Made by a program: the position numbers and the translations under genes. This document shows, one piece after another, positions 21,731-45,719 of a stretch of DNA of 64,000 nucleotides (positions are counted from its first letter, which is position 1; each line of letters starts with the position of its first letter). Origin of the DNA: Fistulifera solaris (taxonomy: Eukaryota); the NCBI GenBank assembly GCA_030295235.1, contig AP026138.1, forward strand, positions 806,001-870,000. The letters are read 5' to 3'. The notes beneath the pieces are model-generated. The model had not been told where the DNA came from. It ran no database searches and worked only from the letters and a program-made list of their open reading frames with translations.

Positions 21731-24095
<2,365 letters not shown>

Positions 24096-26926
24096 GAGGC
24101 CGGTCAATCACTTAAGAATCCAGAACTTATTAGCAGCATGTCTTAATCGCACCCGCAAATTCCTTAGATTTGAATTCGGGAAGGAGAATAGCGATAGAGG
24201 TCGGTGCAAGTGGCTATCAAACAAGAAGCATTGTGAATTGCTGGTCGTCTCGAGTGTACCACCACGCCCCAAGATTATTTTTTATCCAAGAATGCCGAGG
24301 CAAACTTATACGCTATTTTAACTCCAGGTGTTTTGCGCAAACCCTGATCTTGCATTATGCTTCTTGTTTTTTTATTGTTTGCCGCCCATAATCTAAAAAT
24401 AAGCTCCCATGTCCCATCGAACCGAACATCGGCTATTAAAGTAAAGCAGATATGAGCTGTTCGGATTATATGCCACCAGCCACACAAAGGTATAACAAAA
24501 CGAATCGTTAGGCGAAAGCAGATTCGAGCGCATATAGTTCCCAATAATCAGTTTAGCTCGTGACACAAGACATCGTTCGTGATTCTTTGGCGTTTCAGAA
24601 AAATTAGACCTTCCTCCTCCCTTGATTGAGAGCGGCGTGAAAGCGCTTCGATTCAAGAATCAAGATGAACACCATGATATCTCTCAGGCTATCATGGTGG
24701 ACAATGTCACAAGATGATCGAATATGTGTGGGCATAATCGACTTTATCGCCGCTCCCGCGCGCATTGACAAAAGCATCAAGGAGCAACGCCATCGCTTCT
24801 TTTGAATCAACCTCACCAAGACGGAGATTCTCTCTCGTTATAAGTTATGCACAACTCACGGAGATCAGCAGCAGTGGTATGACGAGGGTCGCGTCCGTTG
24901 TAAGTCTACTGTCCGATGTAACAATCTCGGCGTTCACTTGCCATGGGGAGACGTCATCCTTTTTTTATCCTTTTGGATACATCTAGCTAATGCAATCGTT
25001 CACACGCTCGCGTCTAGGCTGAAAATCTTTATGGGGCATGTTGCTCGAGTCGACTCACGCGTATTTTGCACCTGCTTAGCGCGGCTCAAAGCTTATGCGC
25101 TGGGTGGATTGCCAACTGACCGGAGACATTATTACCAAATGAAAGAGGGCCGCCCGCCGCGTCCACCTGCGCGCGTTACGCGGACCAATATTTATCAAAA
25201 GAGACCGTAGTAACATTTTGTTTCGTCGCCTAGTATACTCCATGAATGTATCAATATTCTGAGAGAAGAGTCCGTAGGGCACCGCACCGAGCTTTCGGTT
25301 CACAAAGGAGACCTGCATTTTAAAGTCTCCATTAAAGCGGTGGAAACATATCGGCGATGTGCGGCCATATTTCCGCAAACTCATATCTAATTCTTGCCAC
25401 ACAGCAATGTTTGTTGTGCCCTTTGGTGGCTCTCGAAAGTAAGATATTCATCCTTGTCGTGTTGACACAAGGAATTGGCATCAAGTCCTGCTTGCGTTCG
25501 ACGGCCATTTCCAGCCTTTCGGTATCCAATGTGGACAAAAGCGTGTGCCATTTTTGAATCAAGTCTTCGCCTCCGTTGTAGTACCCTATTTTTGCAATAA
25601 AGTTCTCGACGATTGTTCCAGTTGGGTGAATTGTTGATCTACCAGTTGGGTATGTTGTTGATCTGTCGCCGGAGGAGTGGTAAACTTAAAGGCCGTGCAT
25701 TAATTCGAAGATAACAAGGCAGGGCTACATCAAAACAATTATAGCTCCGTTTGCTCTTTTTTAACGATGAAGAGTTCTAACAAATCCATTTTCGGGATAA
25801 TATGCGCTGTATCTTCGTTGCCTTAGTCTACTTGCAATCATTATTATTTTTTGTTGATTCATGCATTCAAACACTCATTCGAATCTCAGCAGCTACCGCA
25901 CTTTTCCATCAAGATCAAGCACAAAAGATGAAATAATTTGCTACTGCGCTTCTCTAACGAGTGATTGCAAAAGCTACGAGAAGATATGTGTTTCATCGAC
26001 ATCAATGGCAACTGGCAACCTTGATTACTCCGTATTGTACAAGTACACGTATTATTTTTTTTCTCCATCGTGCGCGGGAGGGGGAACAGAACGTCTATAG
26101 CACAAAAGTGTACTTTCCAATGTAGTATAGACTAAAGTGATGGTTTACGCCACCATGACACGACTCTCCTCGGTTTGAATCGCGACGAGGAAAACGATGG
26201 ACACCGAAAATGTTTACACATAGTCTAGCTCTTAAACATAAATGTAAACATGCACAATAGAAGATAATGGGTTAGCTAATTATTTCAGTTGAAATGCTTC
26301 ATAGCAATTTTTTGGGCGTCGAAAAGCTTCTCAGAATTAATTTTCCATTTTTGACTATAGGCTTAAGTGTGTGCTCTACTTTTCCACGACTGGATTTGAG
26401 TCATAATCCTTACCATGAGGGTTGCAATGACAACACATAGCTCCACGAACGGAAATAAGAACATGCAATGATGTTGAAGGCATTGAACTAGCGATCCGTA
26501 TTCTTTGAGATGCACTATTGCATTTATTGCGTGGGAAGGCTTCGACATCCTTTTACACTTTGATTTACTATAACCCCAAAGTGAAGGCGACCTTTGTCAC
26601 GACTGGATTAAGTCATGAGTCGTTGCAATAGATTCAAGCGAGGAAAGCCCCCTTGCTACTTCTCGTCAAGTGACTCTGATTTTTCATTTTATCTAGAACT
26701 TTTTAATTCCTTCTTGGTCGAACTGAAATAGATCCACTAAGGAGCACGGTGAATGGCAGATGATGTCGTACATCGTACAACGAAGATGAGCTATCGAGAT
26801 CGACTCACTTTTCCGTCGTCACATAGGTTATAGGCTTCAGCAACGGCTTCATTTGTTTACGATTTACGATAAACAAAAATAAAGCGGCGACAAATGGAAT
26901 CCAGAACCCGCAAAAGACCAAAGAGG

Positions 26927-27835: not shown

Positions 27836-28721
27836 CGAGTGGTGGTGTCGTCAAAGACTTTATTGAATTTCTCGAACAAACGGTCGATGCTTACAGTTCC
27901 ACGAGCTCGTCGTCGTATAGTTCCGTAAACAATGAAAATGATGCGGATTTACAATTCTTGTTACAAGTGGGCAGTATTCGTCAAGTCGGAGATGAGATGG
28001 ACGAAACAGAGTTGGTGTTGCAGCAATTGAACAAAAAGATGCAGCGTATGGACATGGACTTGATGGAATTGCAAGCTGATATCGCCACTTCCACGAAATT
28101 TACACAAAAGATGGAACTGGAAGAATCGGTCGATGAATTACGAGCTCGGAAACGCGTGGTGGAGAACTACATTCAGAAAGCACGAAAGCGATTGCTGGCT
28201 TTGCAAACGCGATACAAACAGTTGGTCGTCCAAGGTGAGAATGATCCCAAAGCGGGAGGAACGAGTCGCTCGCCTCGTGCAGATACGAGTTACACCAGTC
28301 CTCCTCCGCCACCACCTCGTGCTTCATCGTCGTCTGCTACCAGCAGTCAAAATAATAACAATTCGGAGGATTCGTGGAAAGAGGAAAGCTTTGGGTCGTT
28401 CGGTCGCGGACGGGGTAGTTCTCGACGGAGAGCACAACGAAATACATCGTACGAATCATCATCCAGTTCATCAACAAGTGCTGGAAGCGCATCTTCGTCT
28501 TTTATTCATCCTCATCTCCGAGTCAGTCGTCGTATGCAGCTCCGGAATCGAATCGGTCGACGTCGCCGTCCACACCGGCTTCGACGCCTGGTAGCTACGA
28601 CTACATCCCACCACATTGACACACACAAGCGTCATCATCCACACAAGAAGATAAGCGGCGACTGCGTGAGATCAAAGTGGATGAGGAATTTGAAAAGCTT
28701 AAGCGCGATTTGGGTTTATAA
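27836..28721 (+). pseudogene. 5'-truncated copy of the DnaJ gene (no signal peptide or J domain)
   Basis: Matches the DnaJ gene only from SGGVVKDFIEF onward. Frame disruption near 28500-28525. Confidence 0.8.
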
Positions 28722-28847
28722 GATCAACACGTGAAAATAAAACGAATACCTTTCAATACAATTTTCAGGAAAGGCAGACCTTGCTGGTACGTTACAAGGC
28801 CAAAGATTGGTTGTTAAATTAATTAATTAATTAAATTAATTAATAAT

Positions 28848-30124
<1,277 letters not shown>

Positions 30125-31063
30125 CTTGGTATTTGTTAATGAAAAGATTACTCAAACAAGGACGTTGAATTGTGATACAATTCCGAAAAGATCTTCGCGT
30201 TGTTTAGTCGATGGCGTGTGAGTGGTGGCATGGTCGTACGTCAGTGCCGCTTTTCACGCAACCGCGCCAATAGCGCGCCATATTTACTGTCAAACACAAT
30301 GTACTATCGCTCGATGATGCGCATACGTATGAGAGGACCCGAAAGGAGAAGGAGAGCAACGCGCGCTTTCGTCCGCATTTTGACGAAAGACAGATGGACC
30401 GACAAGAATACTTAGATGAGTTGAGTCCTACAGGTTATCAAATCCACCAATCAAATTGTAGTTGTAATTTTTCCACGCCTTGTGTCTCGAAATGAGACAA
30501 ACGGCCACAATGGACAATGGCGGCCGCGTGGCGTGGCCTACGCTCGCGTCGCCGTGCGGCGCACACATGTCACTGTCACCGCAACCAACGATCTGACTGA
30601 CTCAGTTAGAGTAGAGGTTCAAAAGATACGACAACAGCAGCAAGGATACTCCGCAATTGCTAGGGGAGATGGATGCGACTTGCAGCAACAATCATAGTAC
30701 CTGGTAATCTGAAAGACTGAGCATCACTTCTACGAGATTACTCTATAGAAGGCGACTCGAATCACCACCGTTGAAAGACACAAGACACAAGAAAAAAAGC
30801 TGAGATGCTTTGTGCCATATTTGCGGCTAAAATAATGCGAACCACTACATCGATCCTAATTAGGTACCGTATTGATAAAAAAATGAGAGCTGTAAGTGAC
30901 TTGCAAAAATATTAATAATTGGAATCAAAAGCTATTTGCCAAAATCTAATTTTTCTATGCTTTGTGAACTGGTGACTGTCTGTCTGTCCGGGACAGCTGA
31001 ACGATAGAGCGAACAACACCATGGGAGATGCTGTATAGGTATAGTACTTCCATCGCAGCGCCC

Positions 31064-33418: not shown

Positions 33419-35407
33419 TCATGTTAAAGTCGGTAAGCCATCATCATCAGATTCTTCCGATACTGTTTCCGGTGCAACCTTGCGACTGCTTGCATCGTCA
33501 TTGACTTCTGGCGCGCGAAGAGGGGTCACGGATGCAGTTGACTGAAGACGTGAACTACCGGTTATGCTGGGGTCTCCGGCCTCATAAGACCACGCCCCTA
33601 GCGATGATTTGTCTTTAGAATCCTCATGCACGTTGCATCTAACTTTGGGTTGACGAGCTCTCGCGGTCGAAACTGTGTCAAGAGCCGATCGGACTGGGTC
33701 ATCGTTGTGTCTAGTGTCTAGTTTTAGTCCAGAGTATTCCTGTGTAAGATGTTGGGATCTGTCACTGTCAGTGTGGTCGCTTTTGCTTTCCCCTTGCACC
33801 AACTCCAGCGGCGCATTCGGTGCAAGACCGATCGGTGCAGAGACTTCTGAGATGTGCTTTTCGCATTCTTCAAAAGACCCTTTCAGCTGAACGGAAGTAG
33901 CGTCAGGCGCAAGCCAAACTGACGTTCCCCCTTTTTCTGTTGTATCAATCGAAGAGTCGAGTTCTCGTGAAGATGCATCGGGAGCTAGCCACATCGGCTT
34001 TTGATCCATCCCATTCTTTGTTGGTGGGACCCAAATGGGTAACTGGGCGGCATTGTTGTATGAATAGAAACTGGATCCTTCCGAATCGTGACTAGAAGGC
34101 ACGGGCGCAAGCCAAACTCGTCCACCAGCGGTGCTTTCGTCTGAAACGGAATTGTTGTCCTCTAGAAGAACCTTCTGTAAAATGCTGGGACCTCGTCTTC
34201 TTCTGCGTCGGGTATAGTATGCGCCACCAAATATAAGAAATCCCACAGCGGTCGCGAGCATGAGGAAGCTTCGAGTAGAGCTTAAAAAAGACGCTGACGA
34301 TTTTGGCACTTGACAGCCAAGCAGTTTCATGCACCGGCTACAAATGTTGCAGTTACGAGGACAGGCTACTGCGTCATCGCAGCTTAGGCTTCCTAGCTCC
34401 ATCATTTCCTCCGCAAAGATACATTCACAAGTGGATGAATCGCCGTCTTTTGCGCAAGTAAGCGACAAGTCCCACATCCACAAATTTTCGTATGTGTCGC
34501 ATTTGGTAATGTCAAAATCTCCGTATGGGTCGAAAGTAGCTTGGCCCTGGCTTTGACCGTCATTATTTCCGCTATTCTTTCCATCTTGACCATTATCATT
34601 CGCATTATTTCCGTTGCCATTGTTGTTTCCGTTACCTCCATTGCCGTTGTTGCTGGCATTACCTTGATTGCCATTATTGTTTGCATTGTTCCCTCCGTTG
34701 TCGTTATGGTTTGCATTGTTTCCTCCGTTGCCGTTGTTGTTGGCATTGTTTCCTCCGTTGCCGTTGTTATTCCCATTGTTTCCTCCGTTGCCGTCGTTGT
34801 TCCCATTGTTTCCTCCGTTGCCACTGTTGTTCGCATTATTGCTTCCGTTGCCACTGTTGTTTGCGCTAGTTCCATCGTTTGTTCCGTCTCCTTCATTTTC
34901 GGTAGTGTCGTTAACATTGTCAAAGTCACCGTTGCTCACGACTGTATCACTATCGTTATTAGATGATCCGTAGTCGCTCCCGCCGTTATTTGTGTTCCCA
35001 CTGTTTTCATAAGAGCCGCTAGACGTCGAGTTTCCTTTGCCTGCATGGTGTGTATATTGGCACTTTGGGGCTCTACCGGACAATTTCCATGATGACTTAA
35101 GCTCAGAATCGCTCAGACCAAGACATCCCAGATACCCCGAATGGCTTGTGCTATGGCCATGTCCACTGGGACCTGTCGGTACGAAGAGATGGTTAAGATC
35201 CTTTTGATGCCACTGTTTACACCGAGTTCGGGTGTACTTACGTTTGGGAAGACGCCGTCGGTTGAAAACTTCCGGAGTCGTCGTCGCACCTCGTAATTGA
35301 ACAGAGCCTTCATTTTCAACAAGTAACCCGCGTGCAAACGCTCCATTGGCTACGAGTAAGGAGGATAAAAGCAAGATTGTTGGGTTGAGGACACGTCGCG
35401 TTATCAT
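33419..35407 (-). CDS. Type I membrane protein: signal peptide, RRL motif, Asn/Gly-rich repeats, Cys-rich module, TM, cytosolic tail
   Basis: Single 662-aa ORF. NNGNGGNNAN repeats (30-nt unit, ~34600-34865), C-rich FDITKC...CMKLLGC, TM FLMLATAVGFLIFGGAYY followed by RRRRRR. Confidence 0.85.
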   Translation of the reverse strand: MITRRVLNPTILLLSSLLVANGAFARGLLVENEGSVQLRGATTTPEVFNRRRLPKRKYTRTRCKQWHQKDLNHLFVPTGPSGHGHSTSHSGYLGCLGLSDSELKSSWKLSGRAPKCQYTHHAGKGNSTSSGSYENSGNTNNGGSDYGSSNNDSDTVVSNGDFDNVNDTTENEGDGTNDGTSANNSGNGSNNANNSGNGGNNGNNDGNGGNNGNNNGNGGNNANNNGNGGNNANHNDNGGNNANNNGNQGNASNNGNGGNGNNNGNGNNANDNGQDGKNSGNNDGQSQGQATFDPYGDFDITKCDTYENLWMWDLSLTCAKDGDSSTCECIFAEEMMELGSLSCDDAVACPRNCNICSRCMKLLGCQVPKSSASFLSSTRSFLMLATAVGFLIFGGAYYTRRRRRRGPSILQKVLLEDNNSVSDESTAGGRVWLAPVPSSHDSEGSSFYSYNNAAQLPIWVPPTKNGMDQKPMWLAPDASSRELDSSIDTTEKGGTSVWLAPDATSVQLKGSFEECEKHISEVSAPIGLAPNAPLELVQGESKSDHTDSDRSQHLTQEYSGLKLDTRHNDDPVRSALDTVSTARARQPKVRCNVHEDSKDKSSLGAWSYEAGDPSITGSSRLQSTASVTPLRAPEVNDDASSRKVAPETVSEESDDDGLPTLT

Positions 35408-36685: not shown

Positions 36686-36697
36686 GGTGGCGCTTTG

Positions 36698-37063
36698 TGT
36701 TGAATAACCAGTCACGACGTGTCTACAATAAACGGAAAGACATGTGAACTACATATTACATGATACTGAAAACGAAGCGAACAGCAATCTACCTAATCCC
36801 CGAATCCTCGTTATTCAAAGAACTAACAGCTGCCGAAGGAACCTAAACTATTACTGACAAAGAACAATGCCAGCAGCTTCTGCATATTCTACATGAATCA
36901 AATGAGAACAATGAAGAGACAAACAAGAATTCAAATCAATAGGATAACTTCATTTACTAGCTCATAATTTTAACAAGCAATCCGTTTGCAGCAATCCGTT
37001 TGCACCAAGTTAATTTTGTCAAGCCCAATCCATAGACGGCTCCGGCACCTGTGGATTTCAAGA
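36698..37063 (+). repeat. 5' LTR (TGTTGAA...TTCAAGA)
   Basis: By eye it differs from the 3' LTR only by three small indels. Contains a tandem 14-mer GCAATCCGTTTGCA x2 at 36977-37004. Confidence 0.95.
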
Positions 37064-37086
37064 CGCTTCCTCTGCGCCAAGTGACC
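37064..37086 (+). promoter_or_regulatory. Primer-binding site complementary to the first ~23 nt of a tRNA
   Basis: Reverse complement GGTCACT-TG-GCGC-AGAGGAA-GCG fits acceptor strand, U8, D-stem and D-loop. Confidence 0.7.
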
Positions 37087-40000
37087 ATAAAGCTCCGCAC
37101 TTTATAACAACTACTTCGTTCCGACGAAATGGCTGACGCTAACGCGAACAACGCCAACCAAAACCTCGCTGCTCCCGTAGCAGTAGCCTTTGCTCTAAGC
37201 CCGGCTTGAGCACCCACCATGTCATCGACTTCTCTACTCGCGAAGGATCTCGCCTCTGAAATGGCGACCAAGCAGATTGGAGATGAACGATTCGACTGCG
37301 ATCCCGGTCGCATGCGCTCTCCTTCATCGAAGGACTTAGCATCCGTGCTAGCAACTTTGGTTGGGGGCCGATCTTCAACATCCCCGACGATATCGAAGCC
37401 ATCGAGCCTGTCCAGAACACCACCAACCTCCTCTCCAACTACGGAGACATTACTTTGGAGCACATTCAAGCTCACGCACGCACATACATCGGTACCCAGA
37501 CCCGTGCAGCATGAAGACTCCTACATGGCAGCCAACTGCCTCATTTCCTCTCTAAGCCCAGCCGCCATCGATCGCATCACGATCTGGCGGGACCAGTACA
37601 CCTTTGATGGTATCCCCAGCGGGCCTTGCCTGTTCAAAGTCATCATCCGTGAGACTTACATTGACACAAATGCAACGGTCACGCATTATTCGCGCAGCTC
37701 TCCAGTTTGGACCAGTACTTACCTAAGATTCAGCACAACATCACCAAGATGAACCAGCAAGTTAAACAGCTATTGGAAGGCTTGGCAGCGCGAGGAGAAA
37801 CCACAAACGATCTTCTTGGCGAATCTCTTTAAGGGTTACAAGGCAGCCTCCGATCGCACCTTTGTCAACTACATCCTGAAGAAAGAAGAAGATTACCACG
37901 AAGGTCTTCTGATGACACCGGATCACCTCATGAACCTAGCAGATAACAAGTACAAGACCTTGGTACAACTTTCTCTGTGGAACGCTGCCTTCGCCGGAAG
38001 AAGAAAAGATTCTCGCATTGGAGGCAAAACTCCAAAAGTTGGAAAGCAAAAGAAGACCGAAAACAAGCCAAAGCATCAAGCCAAAAGCAAACCCCAGCGC
38101 AACAGAAACACTCCCAAGCCAGACTGGATGTCGGTGCCTCCAAAGGACGACGAACCCAAGCAGAAAACAGTTGAGGGAAGCGAGTACTTCTGGTGCGAAA
38201 AGCATAACTCATGGGGCAAACACAAGACGGTTGATTGTCGCCAAGCCAACATCCGCAGACCGGGAGTCTCCAAACCCGAAGCGAAGAAAGAGCGACTCGT
38301 CAAAGCGCTAGCTGCACTCCTCAATGACAGCGACAGCGATGAGGACGACAACGTAGATGAGTATTCGGACGCAAGTGACAACGAAGCAAGCGACAGTGAA
38401 TGACTTACCAAGTCTATCTGGCGGTACCTCAGCTTCAGCTGGGACTGGCTTCTTGCCTGCACCGCAACCCTGATCTACTGCTTGTTCTTTGACCACGCAC
38501 GACATTGCGACCGCTACATTCCTAAAACGACTTCGAAAGGAAACCATTAGTAAGCGATTGAAAACACTTGGTCAACGGGTCGGCAGTCCAATTCAGACTT
38601 ACCTGGTCCGCATTCACACAGTATGGATACGAAATTCCACGACCCGAACGGTCCTTCACAAGAGGCGAAAAGCAGCAAGGCAGGCACTCTACTTTTCTCA
38701 TACACCACTCATTCGATTCCGCAATCCAATAGCCAGATGGTGGAGACAATGGAAACTGGGCGTCAAAGGAGATATGTGTTAATGATGACAGCGATGTGTT
38801 ACAGTGCAAACGCGGTCCCACAAGTACTTACCAAGACTTTTGATACCGATTCAGTTCCAATTGGTGTCGACAATAGATGCTCAGCGTGCATCTCCCATGT
38901 CGCTGACGGACTTTGTTGGAAAACTACAGGAGACCAACTTGATTATCAAAGGCTTTGGCGGTAACCGCACCAGCAATGTGATGAAAGGCACTCTGAAATG
39001 GTCATGGGAAAATGATGAGGGCAAGATGACATCATTCACGATTCCAAACTCATACTACGTACCAGACGGCAAAGTTCGACTTCTATCACCGCAACATTGG
39101 GCAAAATACACCGGAAACAAACTCTCTGGATGTGATACCACGAGCAAACATGCGATTCTGTATTGGGGCAGCAACAAGAAAACAATTCCGATTGATCCAC
39201 GTTCAAACGTTGCAACGTTTTACTCCGCCCCCTGGCTGCCGCGAATTTCGAAACCTTCTGCGCCCGAAGCATCGATTCCTGACGATGAAGACGACAATCC
39301 GCTTTGTTTCGATGCAAACACAGTCGACACAACACCTTCAGAGGGAGCGAGCGCAGATTCAGAGGGAGCTGAACCATTTCGCAGCCGCACAGTTGACTTC
39401 GAGTTCGACGGCAATCAACAACAACACAAACTGGTCATACAGGAAAGTGACACAACAACAAGTCAAACAGTTCCAGCAGCCGAATTGCTCACTTACCATC
39501 GCCTTTATGGTCATGCGCCGATGGAGAAGCTTCAGGAATTGGCGAAGCAAGGAGTTATTCCACCGACTTGCAACGTGTCCGACACCGGTGTGCACCGCCC
39601 TGTTTTTACGGAAAAGCAACAAAGCGTCAGTGGCGAACGAAACCAGCTAAACAAAGCAAAACCCTTCACAAGCCTACTCACCCCGGCGAAGTTGTTGCTG
39701 TGGATCAAATGGTATCACCCACGCCTGGCCTCATTGCGCAGCTCACAGGAATCTTGACGACAAAACGCTATTTGTACGCCACCGTCTTCGGCCGACCTTT
39801 ATTCCAGCTTGAGTTATGTTCACCTGCAAAAGACACAAAGTGCGAGTGAGACCTTGGAAGCAAAACACGCTTTTGAACAATACGCTTCGAAATTGTGGAG
39901 TCGACAAGATCAAACACTATCATGCCGACAATGGAATTTTCAATTCGAACACTTGGGTCAACGATTGCGTAACAAACGGTCAGGGACTTTCCTTTGCAGG

Positions 40001-42514
40001 AGTTGGAGCACATCATCAAAATGGCAAAGCTGAACGCCGCATAGGACAATTGCAAGAACTCACTCGAGCGATGCTGATCGATGCACAACACAAGTGGCCG
40101 CAAGCCATCACAACTCACCTGTGGCCTTATGCTTTGCGCGCATGGCAAACGATTCCATCAACCACATGCCAAACATGAAGCACCCTGAGCTCGTACTCCT
40201 TATCAACTCTTCGCCAACACGGATATTCATTCGAATCCAATTCATTGGAAACCATTCGGTTGCCCAGTATTTGTTCTTGACGCCGCGCTTCAAGGAGGAA
40301 AAAGTCGGATATTTCACAAATGGCGCTCTGCGCTCACATCTCGGAATTTATTTGGGACGTTCTCCAGTACACAGCCGTTCTGTCGCCCTGGTACTGAACC
40401 CAGACACAGGACTCGTCAGTCCCCAGTTTCACGTCAAATTTGATTCGAAATTCCAAACTGTTCCGGACCTTGCGAAAACATGTTTGTGGCAACTCAAAGC
40501 CGGTTTTATTGCCGCTCCAAGCGCAAATCCTCAACAATCCACGCCTACATTGTCGGATACACCTACTACTACACCCGCCGACCTCTCTCCGTTACCGATG
40601 CCGCTGCCGACCGCCGCACCACCTGATGACAATGTTCCGTCCACCGATCGTCAACCTGAACCACTTTCCTCTCCATCGCCACCACAATCTCAGAGGGAGA
40701 GACGCAGCACTCGCCAACGACGTCCCGTTACTCGATTAATAGAGATCATGATCGCAATGTTCGCTAGTGAACTCAGTCAATCATCGGCCGACATCAAAGG
40801 GGAACTTTTTGCTTACGAATCTCTTCAAACCGCCTCAGCAAAACTCAATCCACCGGATCCATTCTATGTTTTCAAAACGAAAGCCGACCCCGATTCAATG
40901 TATTTGCATCAAGCTCGCAAACAACCCGATTGGCCGGAGTTTTCCAAAGGCATGGACGTAAATCGAGGATCAAATGGCAAATGGAAATTTCTCATTGTTT
41001 CCAAGGAGTCAAGTTCCAGAGGGAGCAACGATTCTACCAACAGTATGGCAACTTCGCTCGCAAACGAGACATTATGACACGCGAAGTCAAGAAGTGGAAA
41101 GCGCGACTGACTATTGATGGGTCACGGATGAAATATGGTCGCGACTATGAATTGACCTACTCTCCGGTTGCTAATTGGACTTCAATCCGCTTGTTACTAG
41201 CAATGGTGATCATACATGGTTGGCATACGAAGCAACTCGATTGTGTTCAGGCATTTCCTCAGGCGCGCGACAAAGAAATTTATCTGTCCATTCCAAAAGG
41301 ATATACAATACACGGAGCATCCCCCGGACGATTATGTTCTGAAAGTCCACAAGAATGTTTATGGAGCAAAGGATGCAAGTCGAACATGGTTCCTTTATTT
41401 GCGAAAGAAACTATTTGAGATCGGTTTCAAGCAATCGGAATACGACGAATGTGTGTTTTACTACAAGAGCACGATGTATGTTCTATATACCGACGACAGT
41501 ATTCTTGGAGGTCCTAATGAAAAGGAAATTGAGGAAATTATTGAAAAGATGAAACAGATCAAACTAGACATTACAGTTGAGGGAGATTTATCGGATTTTC
41601 TGGGAGTTAATATCAACAGGATCGGTGAATCAACAATTGAATTGAAACAGCCACAACTCATCGACTCGATAATCAAAGACATGAAATTCGACCAGAAGGA
41701 AGTTAAAACAAAGGATATTCCAATGGCATCATCGAAGCTACTTTCGCAGCATCCCAAATCGCCGCCATTTGACAAAAGTTTTCATTACACTTCAGTCATC
41801 GGAAAAATGAACTACCTGACGCTGAGGATCCAGGCCAGACATCGCCTATGCGGTACATCAATCGCGCACGCTTTGCATCAAACCCAAGGAAAGAACATGG
41901 AGATGCAATGAGATGGCTTACAAAGTATCTGATAGGGACAAGGGACAAAGGAATGATTCTGCACCCAGACGTCTCTAGAAGCTTGGAAGTTCATGTCGAC
42001 GCCCGATTTCGCAGGCAATTGGGATCCAGAGATCGCTTTTGAGGACCTAAACACAGCTCGCTCCAGACACGGATTTTTCATCACCTATGCCGGAGTATTG
42101 TTGCATCACAAGAGTCAACTTCAGACAGAGATTGCATTGAGTTCCACCGAGCGAATTCACCGGATTGAGCTACGCACTCAGAGATGCAATTCCTATCATG
42201 AACACTTTGAAGGAGATGCAATCACTCGGATTTGATGTGAAAGAGTGGAGGCCAAAAGTCCATTGCAAAGTATTTGAGGACAACTCGGGAGCTCTGGAAA
42301 TCGCAAAAGTTCCGAAGGCTCGACCAAGGACGAAGCATTTGAATGTCAAACTGCACCATTTTCGGTCATACGTTGACAGCGGAGATATAACAATCCACAA
42401 AATCGATACTCTCGAACAAGTTGCGGATATTCTAACGAAACCACTCACATTTGATCTCTTTGCCAAACATCGGAAGGCAATTCTCGGATGGTGAGATCGC
42501 AGTTCGAGAGGGAG

Positions 42515-42880
42515 TGTTGAATAACCAGTCACGCGTGTCTACAATAAACGGAAAGACATGTGAACTACATATTACATGATACTGAAAACGAGAAGCGAAC
42601 AGCAATCTACCTAATCCCGAATCCTCGTTATTCAAAGAACTAACAGCTGCCGAAGGAACCTAAACTATTACTGACAAAGAACAATGCCAGCAGCTTCTGC
42701 ATATTCTACATGAATCAAATGAGAACAATGAAGAGACAAACAAGAATTCAAATCAATAGGATAACTTCATTTACTAGCTCATAATTTTAACAAGCAATCC
42801 GTTTGCAGCAATCCGTTTGCACCAAGTTAATTTTGTCAAGCCCAATCCATAGACGGCTCCGGCACCTGTGGATTTCAAGA
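42515..42880 (+). repeat. 3' LTR
   Basis: Direct repeat of 36698-37063, preceded by a polypurine tract. Confidence 0.95.
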
Positions 42881-43185
42881 GCTTTGCTCATTGAATTACT
42901 TTCACCGTCAATAATATACTCGAACGCACAACGTGCGAACTGCGAAGGGCGCACGCCTAGTTAGAGTTAAAGTTACCAGGTAGTCATAAAACAAATAATG
43001 AATTCCATCGAATTCGTTGGAATTCGCAGCGCTCGCGTCGTCGTTGTGTTCCTCTTGATTTTAAATTGGTACTGTATGCCTTCTTTGCAGTAAAAGAACG
43101 CTTCATCTATTTATCTCATAGGAGTTACTCTTTTTAATTTTGAAGCATTAACTTATTGAACAGCCGCGAGAAGAACTAAAGGATC

Positions 43186-43962: not shown

Positions 43963-44232
43963 ATACTGATGATAACTTTATACAGATACGACATAGCTTG
44001 TCAAGGTTAAAAAAGAACTATAATGAAGTAATAGATACTTTAGAGAGATACCAAGTGCCTAATAAAGAGATGATGGAGCTATGAGCTATGGTTTCATGGC
44101 TTACTGGTACCTGGCAAGGATGACGATGACTAAAAACTAATGACAGAAATGCAGCCGAGCCGTGGTAAAAATAATGATAAAACGATAGTTTATAGTACTT
44201 GCAGGAGTTAACAGCTTTCTTTATTATAAAAA

Positions 44233-45637
44233 GTCGCGATCGCGTACAACCTACACTTTACCATTATAGTGAAAATGGCAGTCAACGATACGGATGCTTT
44301 CCGACGCAAATATTTGCGTTTCGAATGAAGATGATAGTTAGACTAGTTCATACATTGATATTTCCATGGCATTTGATTATCCACTTCGCGCTTTTGTTTG
44401 AGGACCACTTTGGTGACGTTTCAATACTGTTCCTGATGTTTCAAGTGACTGAAATTTAGTCCCGATCGCGTACAACCAACACTTTACCATTATAGTGAAA
44501 ATGGCAGTCGACGATACGGATGCTTTCCGACGCAAATATTTGCGTTTCGAATGAAGATGATAGTTAGACTAGTTCATACATTGATAGTTCCATGGCATTT
44601 GATTATCCACTTCGCGCTTTTGTTTGAGGACCACTTCGGTGACGTTTCAATACTGTTCCTTATGTTTCAAGTGACTGAAATTTAGTCCCGATCGCGTACA
44701 AACAAGACTTTACCATTATAGTGAAAATGGCAGTCGACGATACGGATGCTTTCCGACGCAAATATTTGCGTTTCGAATGAAGATGATAGTTAGACTAGTT
44801 CATACATTGATATTTCCATGGCATTTGATTATCCACTTCGCGCTTTTGTTTGAGGACCACTTCGGTGACGTTTCAATACTGTTCCTTATGTTTCAAGTGA
44901 CTGAAATTTAGTCCCGATCGCGTACAAACAAGACTTTACCATTATAGTGAAAATGGCAGTCGACGATACGGATGCTTTCCGACGCAAATATTTGCGTTTC
45001 GAATGAAGATGATAGTTAGACTAGTTCATACATTGATATTTCCATGGCATTTGATTATCCACTTCGCGCTTTTGTTTGAGGACCACTTTGGTGACGTTTC
45101 AATACTGTTCCTTATGTTTCAAGTGACTGAAATTTAGTCCCGATCGCGTACAACCAACACTTTACCATTATAGTGAAAATGGCAGTCGACGATACGGATG
45201 CTTTCCGACGCAAATATTTGCGTTTCGAATGAAGATGATAGTTAGACTAGTTCATACATTGATATTTCCATGGCATTTGATTATCCACTTCGCGCTTTTG
45301 TTTGAGGACCACTTCGGTGACGTTTCAATACTGTTCCTTATGTTTCAAGTGACTGAAATTTAGTCCCGATCGCGTACAAACAAGACTTTACCATTATAGT
45401 GAAAATGGCAGTCGACGATACGGATGCTTTCCGACGCAAATATTTGCGTTTCGAATGAAGATGATAGTTAGACTAGTTCATACATTGATATTTCCATGGC
45501 ATTTGATTATCCACTTCGCGCTTTTGTTTGAGGACCACTTCGGTGACGTTTCAATACGGTTCCTTATGTTTTAAGTGACTGAAATTTAGTCCCGATCGCG
45601 TACAACCTACACCCATTATAGTGAAAATGGCAGTCGA
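44233..45637. repeat. Satellite-like tandem repeat, 226-bp unit, ~6.2 near-identical copies
   Basis: GATCGCGTACAA recurs at 44238, 44464, 44690, 44916, 45142, 45368 and 45594. Confidence 0.97.
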
Positions 45638-45719
45638 AGGTACCAGGGTAATGCCTTTCTCAAGAAAGAATGGCACAAAACAAAAACTGCAAACAATCTT
45701 GTTGCGAGACTAAACAATA

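Follow-up and report, generated by a model that had tools for sequence, protein, structure and literature searches.

A candidate primer binding site complementary to the D-arm of initiator tRNA-Met in a diatom family of Ty1/copia retrotransposons

Background

LTR retrotransposons are known to prime reverse transcription from the 3′ end of a tRNA, from the half-tRNA left by cleavage of the anticodon arm, or by self-priming. In copia the half-tRNA primer is about 39 nt long. According to the ICTV profile, the primer binding sites (PBSs) of pseudovirids are usually complementary to initiator tRNA-Met (tRNAiMet). A review of Ty3 describes a half-tRNA primer for copia and a cut in the anticodon loop for Ty5, for which RNase P has been invoked (PMC5371799). 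In GalEa elements the 3′ end of the tRNA is used in Metazoa and a hairpin takes the place of the PBS in fungi (PMC5445492).

We analysed a 64-kb stretch of DNA from the diatom Fistulifera solaris (hereafter the window), which contains a Ty1/copia element with an unusual post-LTR sequence. Like the Hemivirus elements Drosophila copia and yeast Ty5, it belongs to Ty1/copia, appears to address an internal region of tRNAiMet and would require the tRNA to be cut (PMC5371799). The site is complementary to tRNA positions 8-24 and not to the anticodon stem-loop. Whereas the PBSs of copia and Ty5 pair with the anticodon stem-loop, the diatom site would pair with the D-arm, and its primer, of about 23 nt, would end at G24, one structural domain further 5′ than the copia and Ty5 cut. 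Since the anticodon arm is not the part addressed, we file the family as a variant and not as a member of Hemivirus. By analogy, the D-arm site resembles the half-tRNA mode, with which it would share tRNAiMet and the need for a cut, shifted away from the anticodon arm.

Ty1, plant copia and metazoan GalEa elements (TGGTA..., tRNAiMet 3′ end) use the same tRNA at the same place after the LTR (PMC5445492). Unlike them, the diatom element has no TGG and matches the other end of the tRNA, from which an intact tRNA could not prime. Tf1 and the fungal GalEa hairpin likewise depart from priming by a tRNA 3′ end (PMC5445492), but the putative PBS in the window is a tRNA complement, and self-complementarity of the LTR is only at chance level. 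The literature searched did not describe a PBS of the D-arm type; an earlier description, for instance in Repbase or GyDB, is possible. The main text of Maumus 2009 mentions neither a PBS nor a tRNA, and its supplements may still hold a PBS table.

Results and discussion

Structure of the element

The window contained a single LTR retrotransposon (36698-42880), identified as Ty1/copia by its LTR pair, polypurine tract, target duplication and RVT_2 matches. The 366-bp 5′ LTR (TGTTGAA...TTCAAGA; 36698-37063, + strand) was delimited by alignment to the 3′ LTR (42515-42880, + strand). Identity ended at 37063 and 42880, two small indels were the sole differences in the alignment, and the two LTRs were about 99% alike. 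A target-site duplication, GCTTTG (or CTTTG, if 5 bp long), flanked the element at 36692-36697, and the same hexamer followed the 3′ LTR at 42881-42886. A contig from the public run X1 had the same LTR-flank junction as this right end. The polypurine tract GAGAGGGAG (42506-42514, + strand) lay directly 5′ of the 3′ LTR. The same tract preceded the LTR in three of the relatives discussed below (L125, L138 and L134), and the tract of a fourth, L130, was GAGGGAG.

The gag-pol region (integrase-RT-RNase H; 37129-42494, + strand, with an ATG at 37129) was recognised from RVT_2 matches and tblastn, and was spread over several frames in the window copy. RVT_2 (PF07727) matched two ORF pieces in the window (E values 1e-13 and 1.8e-16), and amino acids 96-1323 of the family polyprotein P0001 were colinear with 38776-42491 in tblastn, with changing frames. 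Family polyproteins possessed both PF13976 and PF07727; the ORF pieces of the window gave no integrase match in Pfam. The gag start was similar to that of L125. Pol homology within 38776-42491 switched frame many times despite the 99% likeness of the LTRs. At 37199, 37257 and 37317, in the gag start, full-depth contigs from four out of four public runs differed from the window by +C, +AC and −2 nt respectively. Assembly indel errors may be the cause instead of decay, and the window copy may be either dead or mis-assembled.

The window was gene-dense and rich in long ORFs. Its genes mark the host as a pennate diatom, one GAPDH showing 99% identity to a protein named from Fistulifera solaris. 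ARAGORN detected no tRNA genes in its 64 kb, an Rfam search of 36900-37250 returned no matches at E ≤ 10, and a search of the window for another element that uses the 3′ end of tRNAiMet (TGGTNNTCACT) gave 0 matches. A near-identical direct duplication was present at 21731-24098 and 27836-30207, its units recurring at an interval of about 6105 bp. This 21.7-30.2 kb repeat was rejected as a retroelement, being a host gene duplication with a GAPDH copy in each unit and DnaJ nearby. Just downstream of the element and of a short-chain dehydrogenase gene, a 226-bp unit was repeated six times in tandem (44232-45661, 83-98% identity). An ORF of 662 aa (33419-35407, minus strand), which matched no Pfam family, included a 30-nt periodic repeat (34646-34885).

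The post-LTR site and the tRNA it matches

The 23-mer CGCTTCCTCTGCGCCAAGTGACC (37064-37086, + strand) adjoined the 5′ LTR with no intervening base and occurred once in the window even when three mismatches were allowed, where shuffled sequences predict 0. Neither TGG nor a complement of the anticodon arm was present after the 5′ LTR of the window. A first-pass annotation of this DNA had reported a tRNA-like sequence in place of TGG, and this was borne out, with the 23-mer adjoining the LTR. The segment 37064-37079 (+ strand) was perfectly complementary to positions 8-24 of initiator tRNA-Met, that is, U8, G9, the D-stem strand GCGC, the D-loop AGAGGAA and the D-stem strand GCG.

The tRNA was identified by scanning IMG/VR viral contigs with this 16-mer, which matched at least 118 loci, with 132 motif occurrences listed. 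Among the matches listed, 105 of the 132 occurrences lay inside tRNA genes called by ARAGORN (104 tRNA-Met(CAT) and one tRNA-Ile), and in these listed genes the motif started at tRNA position 8 every time. The remaining 27 occurrences among the matches listed were tRNA-Met-like genes with inserts or partial copies (14) or lay in other contexts (13). The 76 distinct 72-nt tRNA sequences listed were eukaryote-type initiators, though all are viral, mostly from giant-virus contigs, and none is from a diatom. They shared an anticodon stem with three G:C pairs (G29-31/C39-41) and an ATCGAAA T-loop, and 72 of the 76 had A1. The earlier description of the D-loop as initiator-like was confirmed by the 104 tRNA-Met(CAT) genes that carried the 16-mer among the matches listed. 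Judging from the sequence match, 37064-37079 (possibly extending to 37080) is probably the minus-strand PBS, pairing with the D-arm of cytoplasmic tRNAiMet and not with its 3′ end.

The viral contigs held some unusual tRNA genes. Seven giant-virus loci (L044, L059, L066, L071, L101, L105 and L118) were initiator-type tRNA-Met genes with inserts of about 55-65 nt, which were mutually related, started right after the D-stem and replaced the anticodon arm; ARAGORN did not call them. A similarity between the end of the LTR and these insert-bearing genes (TCTTAAAACATC...) was judged coincidental. In the viral contig of L115 (300-560), two tandem 5′ halves of initiator tRNA-Met reached the anticodon loop; a shared sequence of about 55 nt came after each half, and then one complete tRNA-Met gene.

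Conservation in related elements

The family comprised 2418 proteins at E ≤ 1e-20, one of them named from the diatom Fragilaria crotonensis. A protein-based scan of genome contigs with an alignment of 22 family proteins (A2) found 14 loci, all in bacterial MAGs and evidently on contaminating contigs. Viral contigs yielded no relatives by protein, either with a single protein or with A2. Four of the 14 protein-found loci (L130, L134, L135 and L138) were also matched by a scan for the core with up to three mismatches. These were the only protein-found loci in which an LTR-leader junction was found, and in each the junction read ...CA followed by CGCTTCC(T/A)CTGCG(C). The other ten lacked the core, and by their coordinates most begin inside pol. 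When these MAGs were searched with the 14-nt core, L175 and L178, both collapsed pol-LTR-PBS contigs, were recovered in addition, together with an unrelated locus, L179.

A seventh relative came from JGI metagenome contigs, which were scanned with a 20-mer. The ten loci recovered were a bacterial gene represented six times, two other coding-like contexts, a bacterial-type tRNA-Val(GAC) and L125. In L125 the order was pol end, GAGAGGGAG, a 392-bp LTR (TGTTAAGA...TTTTAACA), CGCTTCCTCTGCGCCAAGTGAtt and gag. L127, L123, L179 and the six loci of the bacterial gene were rejected, their agreement with the pattern being due to chance or to coding sequence.

The seven relatives (L125, L130, L134, L135, L138, L175 and L178), all from metagenomes and contaminated MAGs, had pol identities of 42-57% and LTRs that could not be aligned. 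When the window was aligned with L125, the LTRs agreed in 237 of 442 columns, and agreement between the leaders was 112 of 229. The core CGCTTCC(T/A)CTGCG(C) nonetheless followed the last LTR base directly in eight out of eight elements, the window included; three of the seven relatives (L125, L175 and L178) were found by patterns bearing the core, leaving an unbiased sample of four. The sole substitution in the core was T>A in L134, giving a D-loop AGTGGAA. We count it as covariation because this D-loop position is variable among the initiator-like viral tRNAs (AGNGG). The putative D-arm PBS is family-wide, because seven diverged relatives carry the core adjoining the LTR end. Conservation of the 23-mer in the family, proposed as a check in the first-pass annotation, was found for the first 13-14 nt in all seven relatives and, in six of them, not for the acceptor part.

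L130 lay in a 350,942-bp contig of a MAG labelled Planctomycetota, a genome with bacterial fMet tRNA and with this diatom-type copia element inside. Apart from the PBS itself, the MAG yielded only a bacterial fMet-type tRNA; a 9-mer T-loop pattern was unspecific (120 matches). The outer ends of the L130 LTRs did not match, the 3′ LTR lacking its last 6 nt and the 5′ LTR its first 20 nt or so. The placement of this element suggests a chimeric assembly or contamination. Diatom-type copia elements were present in 13 further bacterial-MAG contigs besides L130 (L129-L142).

Extent of the pairing

The extent of the pairing was judged on six relatives that had not been selected for sequence beyond the 14-nt core. 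The base opposite G9 was A, A, G, G, G and T in these, and never the complementary C. Opposite U8, five out of six had the complementary A (binomial p ~0.005-0.02, depending on A content). Beyond position 8 (8/7) the six differed from the window and from one another, and none implied A1. The robust part of the candidate PBS is thus positions 8-24, and the heptamer AGTGACC (37080-37086, + strand), opposite tRNA positions 7-1, is a doubtful extension into the acceptor strand that only L125 has in common with the window. The first-pass annotation had fitted a tRNA layout to positions 1-24. Its D-arm part (8-24) stood. The acceptor part did not, as the relatives disagree there, and complementarity down to position 1 cannot be upheld as a general feature when six relatives diverge past position 8. 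The "7-nt acceptor strand" is no test of the layout, because any 7 nt would fit.

It is a tentative possibility that in the sub-lineage of the window and L125 the PBS pairs with a whole 23-nt 5′ fragment, tRNA positions 1-24. The 23 nt are unbroken and fit the tRNA layout. Both elements have C opposite G9 and A opposite U8 and share AAGTGA, and L125 matches the window 23-mer at 21 of 23 nt despite the pol divergence and the unalignable LTR and leader. However, L125 was retrieved by a 20-mer that required AAGTG, so that a single further base counts as independent. Over 36850-37350, a comparison with contigs from four public runs gave evidence on both sides. The 23-mer was unchanged in bridging contigs of X1, X2 and X3, bar one variant in X3, a low-depth contig with C>T at 37086. 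This T, also found in L125, would give the A1 of most listed tRNAs, but the window itself implies G1. One X2 contig was like the window up to 37080 and then diverged. The disagreement of the six relatives also tells against the longer pairing, as does the failure of the 20-mer to match any eukaryote-type tRNA-Met, with no loci in viral contigs and no initiator tRNA among its ten metagenome loci. With the longer pairing, plus-strand strong-stop synthesis would run off the 5′ end of a 5′ tRNA fragment (5′ tRF) that is made beforehand and either lacks modifications or is hypomodified. A PBS copied to nucleotide 1 would therefore admit only a pre-made hypomodified 5′ tRF as primer; that this sub-lineage copies the whole 23-nt fragment from such a tRF, and not from a cut mature tRNA, seems doubtful to us.

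A 5-bp inverted repeat, made up of AAGTG (37080-37084) and CACTT (37098-37102), extends across the doubtful part of the site, and the variant X2 contig joins 37080 to sequence starting with CACTTG.

The U5 region, self-priming and other explanations

The U5 motif ACCTGTGG (37047-37054, + strand; reverse complement CCACAGGT), read in the sequence of the 5′ LTR, had been taken to resemble the region from the 3′ side of the anticodon to the variable region of tRNAiMet, and annealing of the whole tRNA had been proposed from it. This did not survive comparison with shuffled sequences. CCACAGGT was found in none of the 76 listed initiator-type tRNAs, the best match between U5 and the tRNA was 7 nt long and was equalled in 57 of 60 shuffles, and U5 in five relatives had nothing comparable to the 3′ parts of the tRNA. 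The motif was therefore rejected as a tRNA mimic, being at chance level. Complementarity of the U5 and leader of the window to other parts of the tRNA was likewise only at chance. In L138, 11 nt of the leader (CGAAGGTCGGT, within 200 nt after the PBS) were complementary to tRNAiMet positions ~40-50, a match reached in none of 30 shuffles. As in Ty1, the tRNA may make a second contact through this stretch; nothing similar was seen in the window.

Self-priming had been named as a finding that would speak against a tRNA primer, and the element had no self-complement to the PBS beyond chance: the longest match of the LTR to the PBS complement was 6 nt, which 251 of 500 shuffles also reached. This argues against self-priming of the Tf1 kind.

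The D-arm complement might instead be kept for another function, as a packaging or dimerisation signal or as a target of silencing guided by tRNA fragments, with priming achieved in another way. The site has been assigned as a PBS from its sequence, and diatoms are described as making unusual tRNA fragments of about 19 nt from the D-loop and anticodon (PMC4247016), both of which leave room for such a function. We nevertheless consider it improbable, as the core directly follows the LTR in all eight elements, the matched tRNA is the usual primer species of Ty1/copia elements in the ICTV profile, and the vicinity of the LTR in the window offers no TGG, anticodon-arm complement or self-complement as a substitute. 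A primer role for a different tRNA with a similar D-arm, such as one like the tRNA-Val(GAC) on L120, is highly improbable. That tRNA begins with CGTCACTTGGCGCAGAGGAAGCGC, matching at 22 of 23 nt, and the D-arm is thus not unique to initiators. L120, however, is a bacterial- or phage-type array of eight tRNAs with encoded CCA, and it was found by the 20-mer, which leaves two of three extra bases as independent agreement; among the matches listed, tRNA genes bearing the core were tRNA-Met in 104 out of 105 cases. A chance resemblance of the post-LTR sequence to a tRNA has next to no probability, given an exact 16-nt identity to the D-arm where a PBS is expected, repeated in seven relatives whose flanks are saturated with changes. 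Pairing with the D-arm of tRNAiMet is the reading that we follow below.

Proposed priming mechanism

From the sequence, position, tRNA identity and conservation of the site, we infer that it would serve in priming, where the tRNA would be cut and how tRNA modification might act. The first base of minus-strand DNA would be laid opposite 37063, and the primer 3′-OH would be that of G24, because the site adjoins the last base of the LTR. The primer would be a 5′ fragment of tRNAiMet, about 23 nt long, released when the 3′ strand of the D-stem is cleaved between positions 24 and 25. The LTR/PBS junction, in placing the 3′ end at G24, supports the earlier proposal of a fragment that ends at the D-stem. 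The cut could be made either before annealing or within the annealed complex. The RNase H of Tf1 is known to cut its own duplex. We found no experimental precedent in the literature searched for a tRNA cut at 24/25 and used as a primer. The D-arm model predicts a host initiator tRNA-Met with GCGCAGAGGAAGCG at positions 10-24.

Fragments of 22-24 nt from the 5′ end of tRNAs, ending in the D-stem, constitute the tRF-5b class. Their size and end point equal those of the putative diatom primer. Such 5′ tRFs are known as regulatory small RNAs; in the literature searched, a role as primers of reverse transcription is undescribed.

Starting at the GAGAGGGAG tract, plus-strand strong-stop synthesis would subsequently reach the primer at G24, copy it back from there and so regenerate the site. 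Eukaryotic initiator tRNAs carry m1G9 and m2G10. While the primer is being copied, modified G9/G10 could form an obstacle that blocks the reverse transcriptase or causes misreading. A core that ends at position 10, with position 9 unpaired and position 8 mostly paired, would fit such an obstacle.

Implications

Annotation tools that seek complements of tRNA 3′ ends would call elements of this kind PBS-less, in a family that is abundant in diatoms (2418 proteins, E ≤ 1e-20). If true, a family-wide D-arm site would add to the known ways in which initiator tRNA-Met is used. The 22-24-nt class of 5′ tRNA fragments would also gain a job as primers, one that needs the D-stem to be cut in its 3′ strand. 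Termination of the core at position 10, together with the mismatch at position 9, may make the action of tRNA modification on a retroelement readable from sequence. Were copying of the whole fragment true of the window and L125 sub-lineage, reverse transcription across m1G9 would have left a heritable scar in the other lineages, namely the non-complementary base opposite G9, and the retrotransposition of stress-activated diatom copia elements would be gated by the stress-induced production of tRNA fragments.
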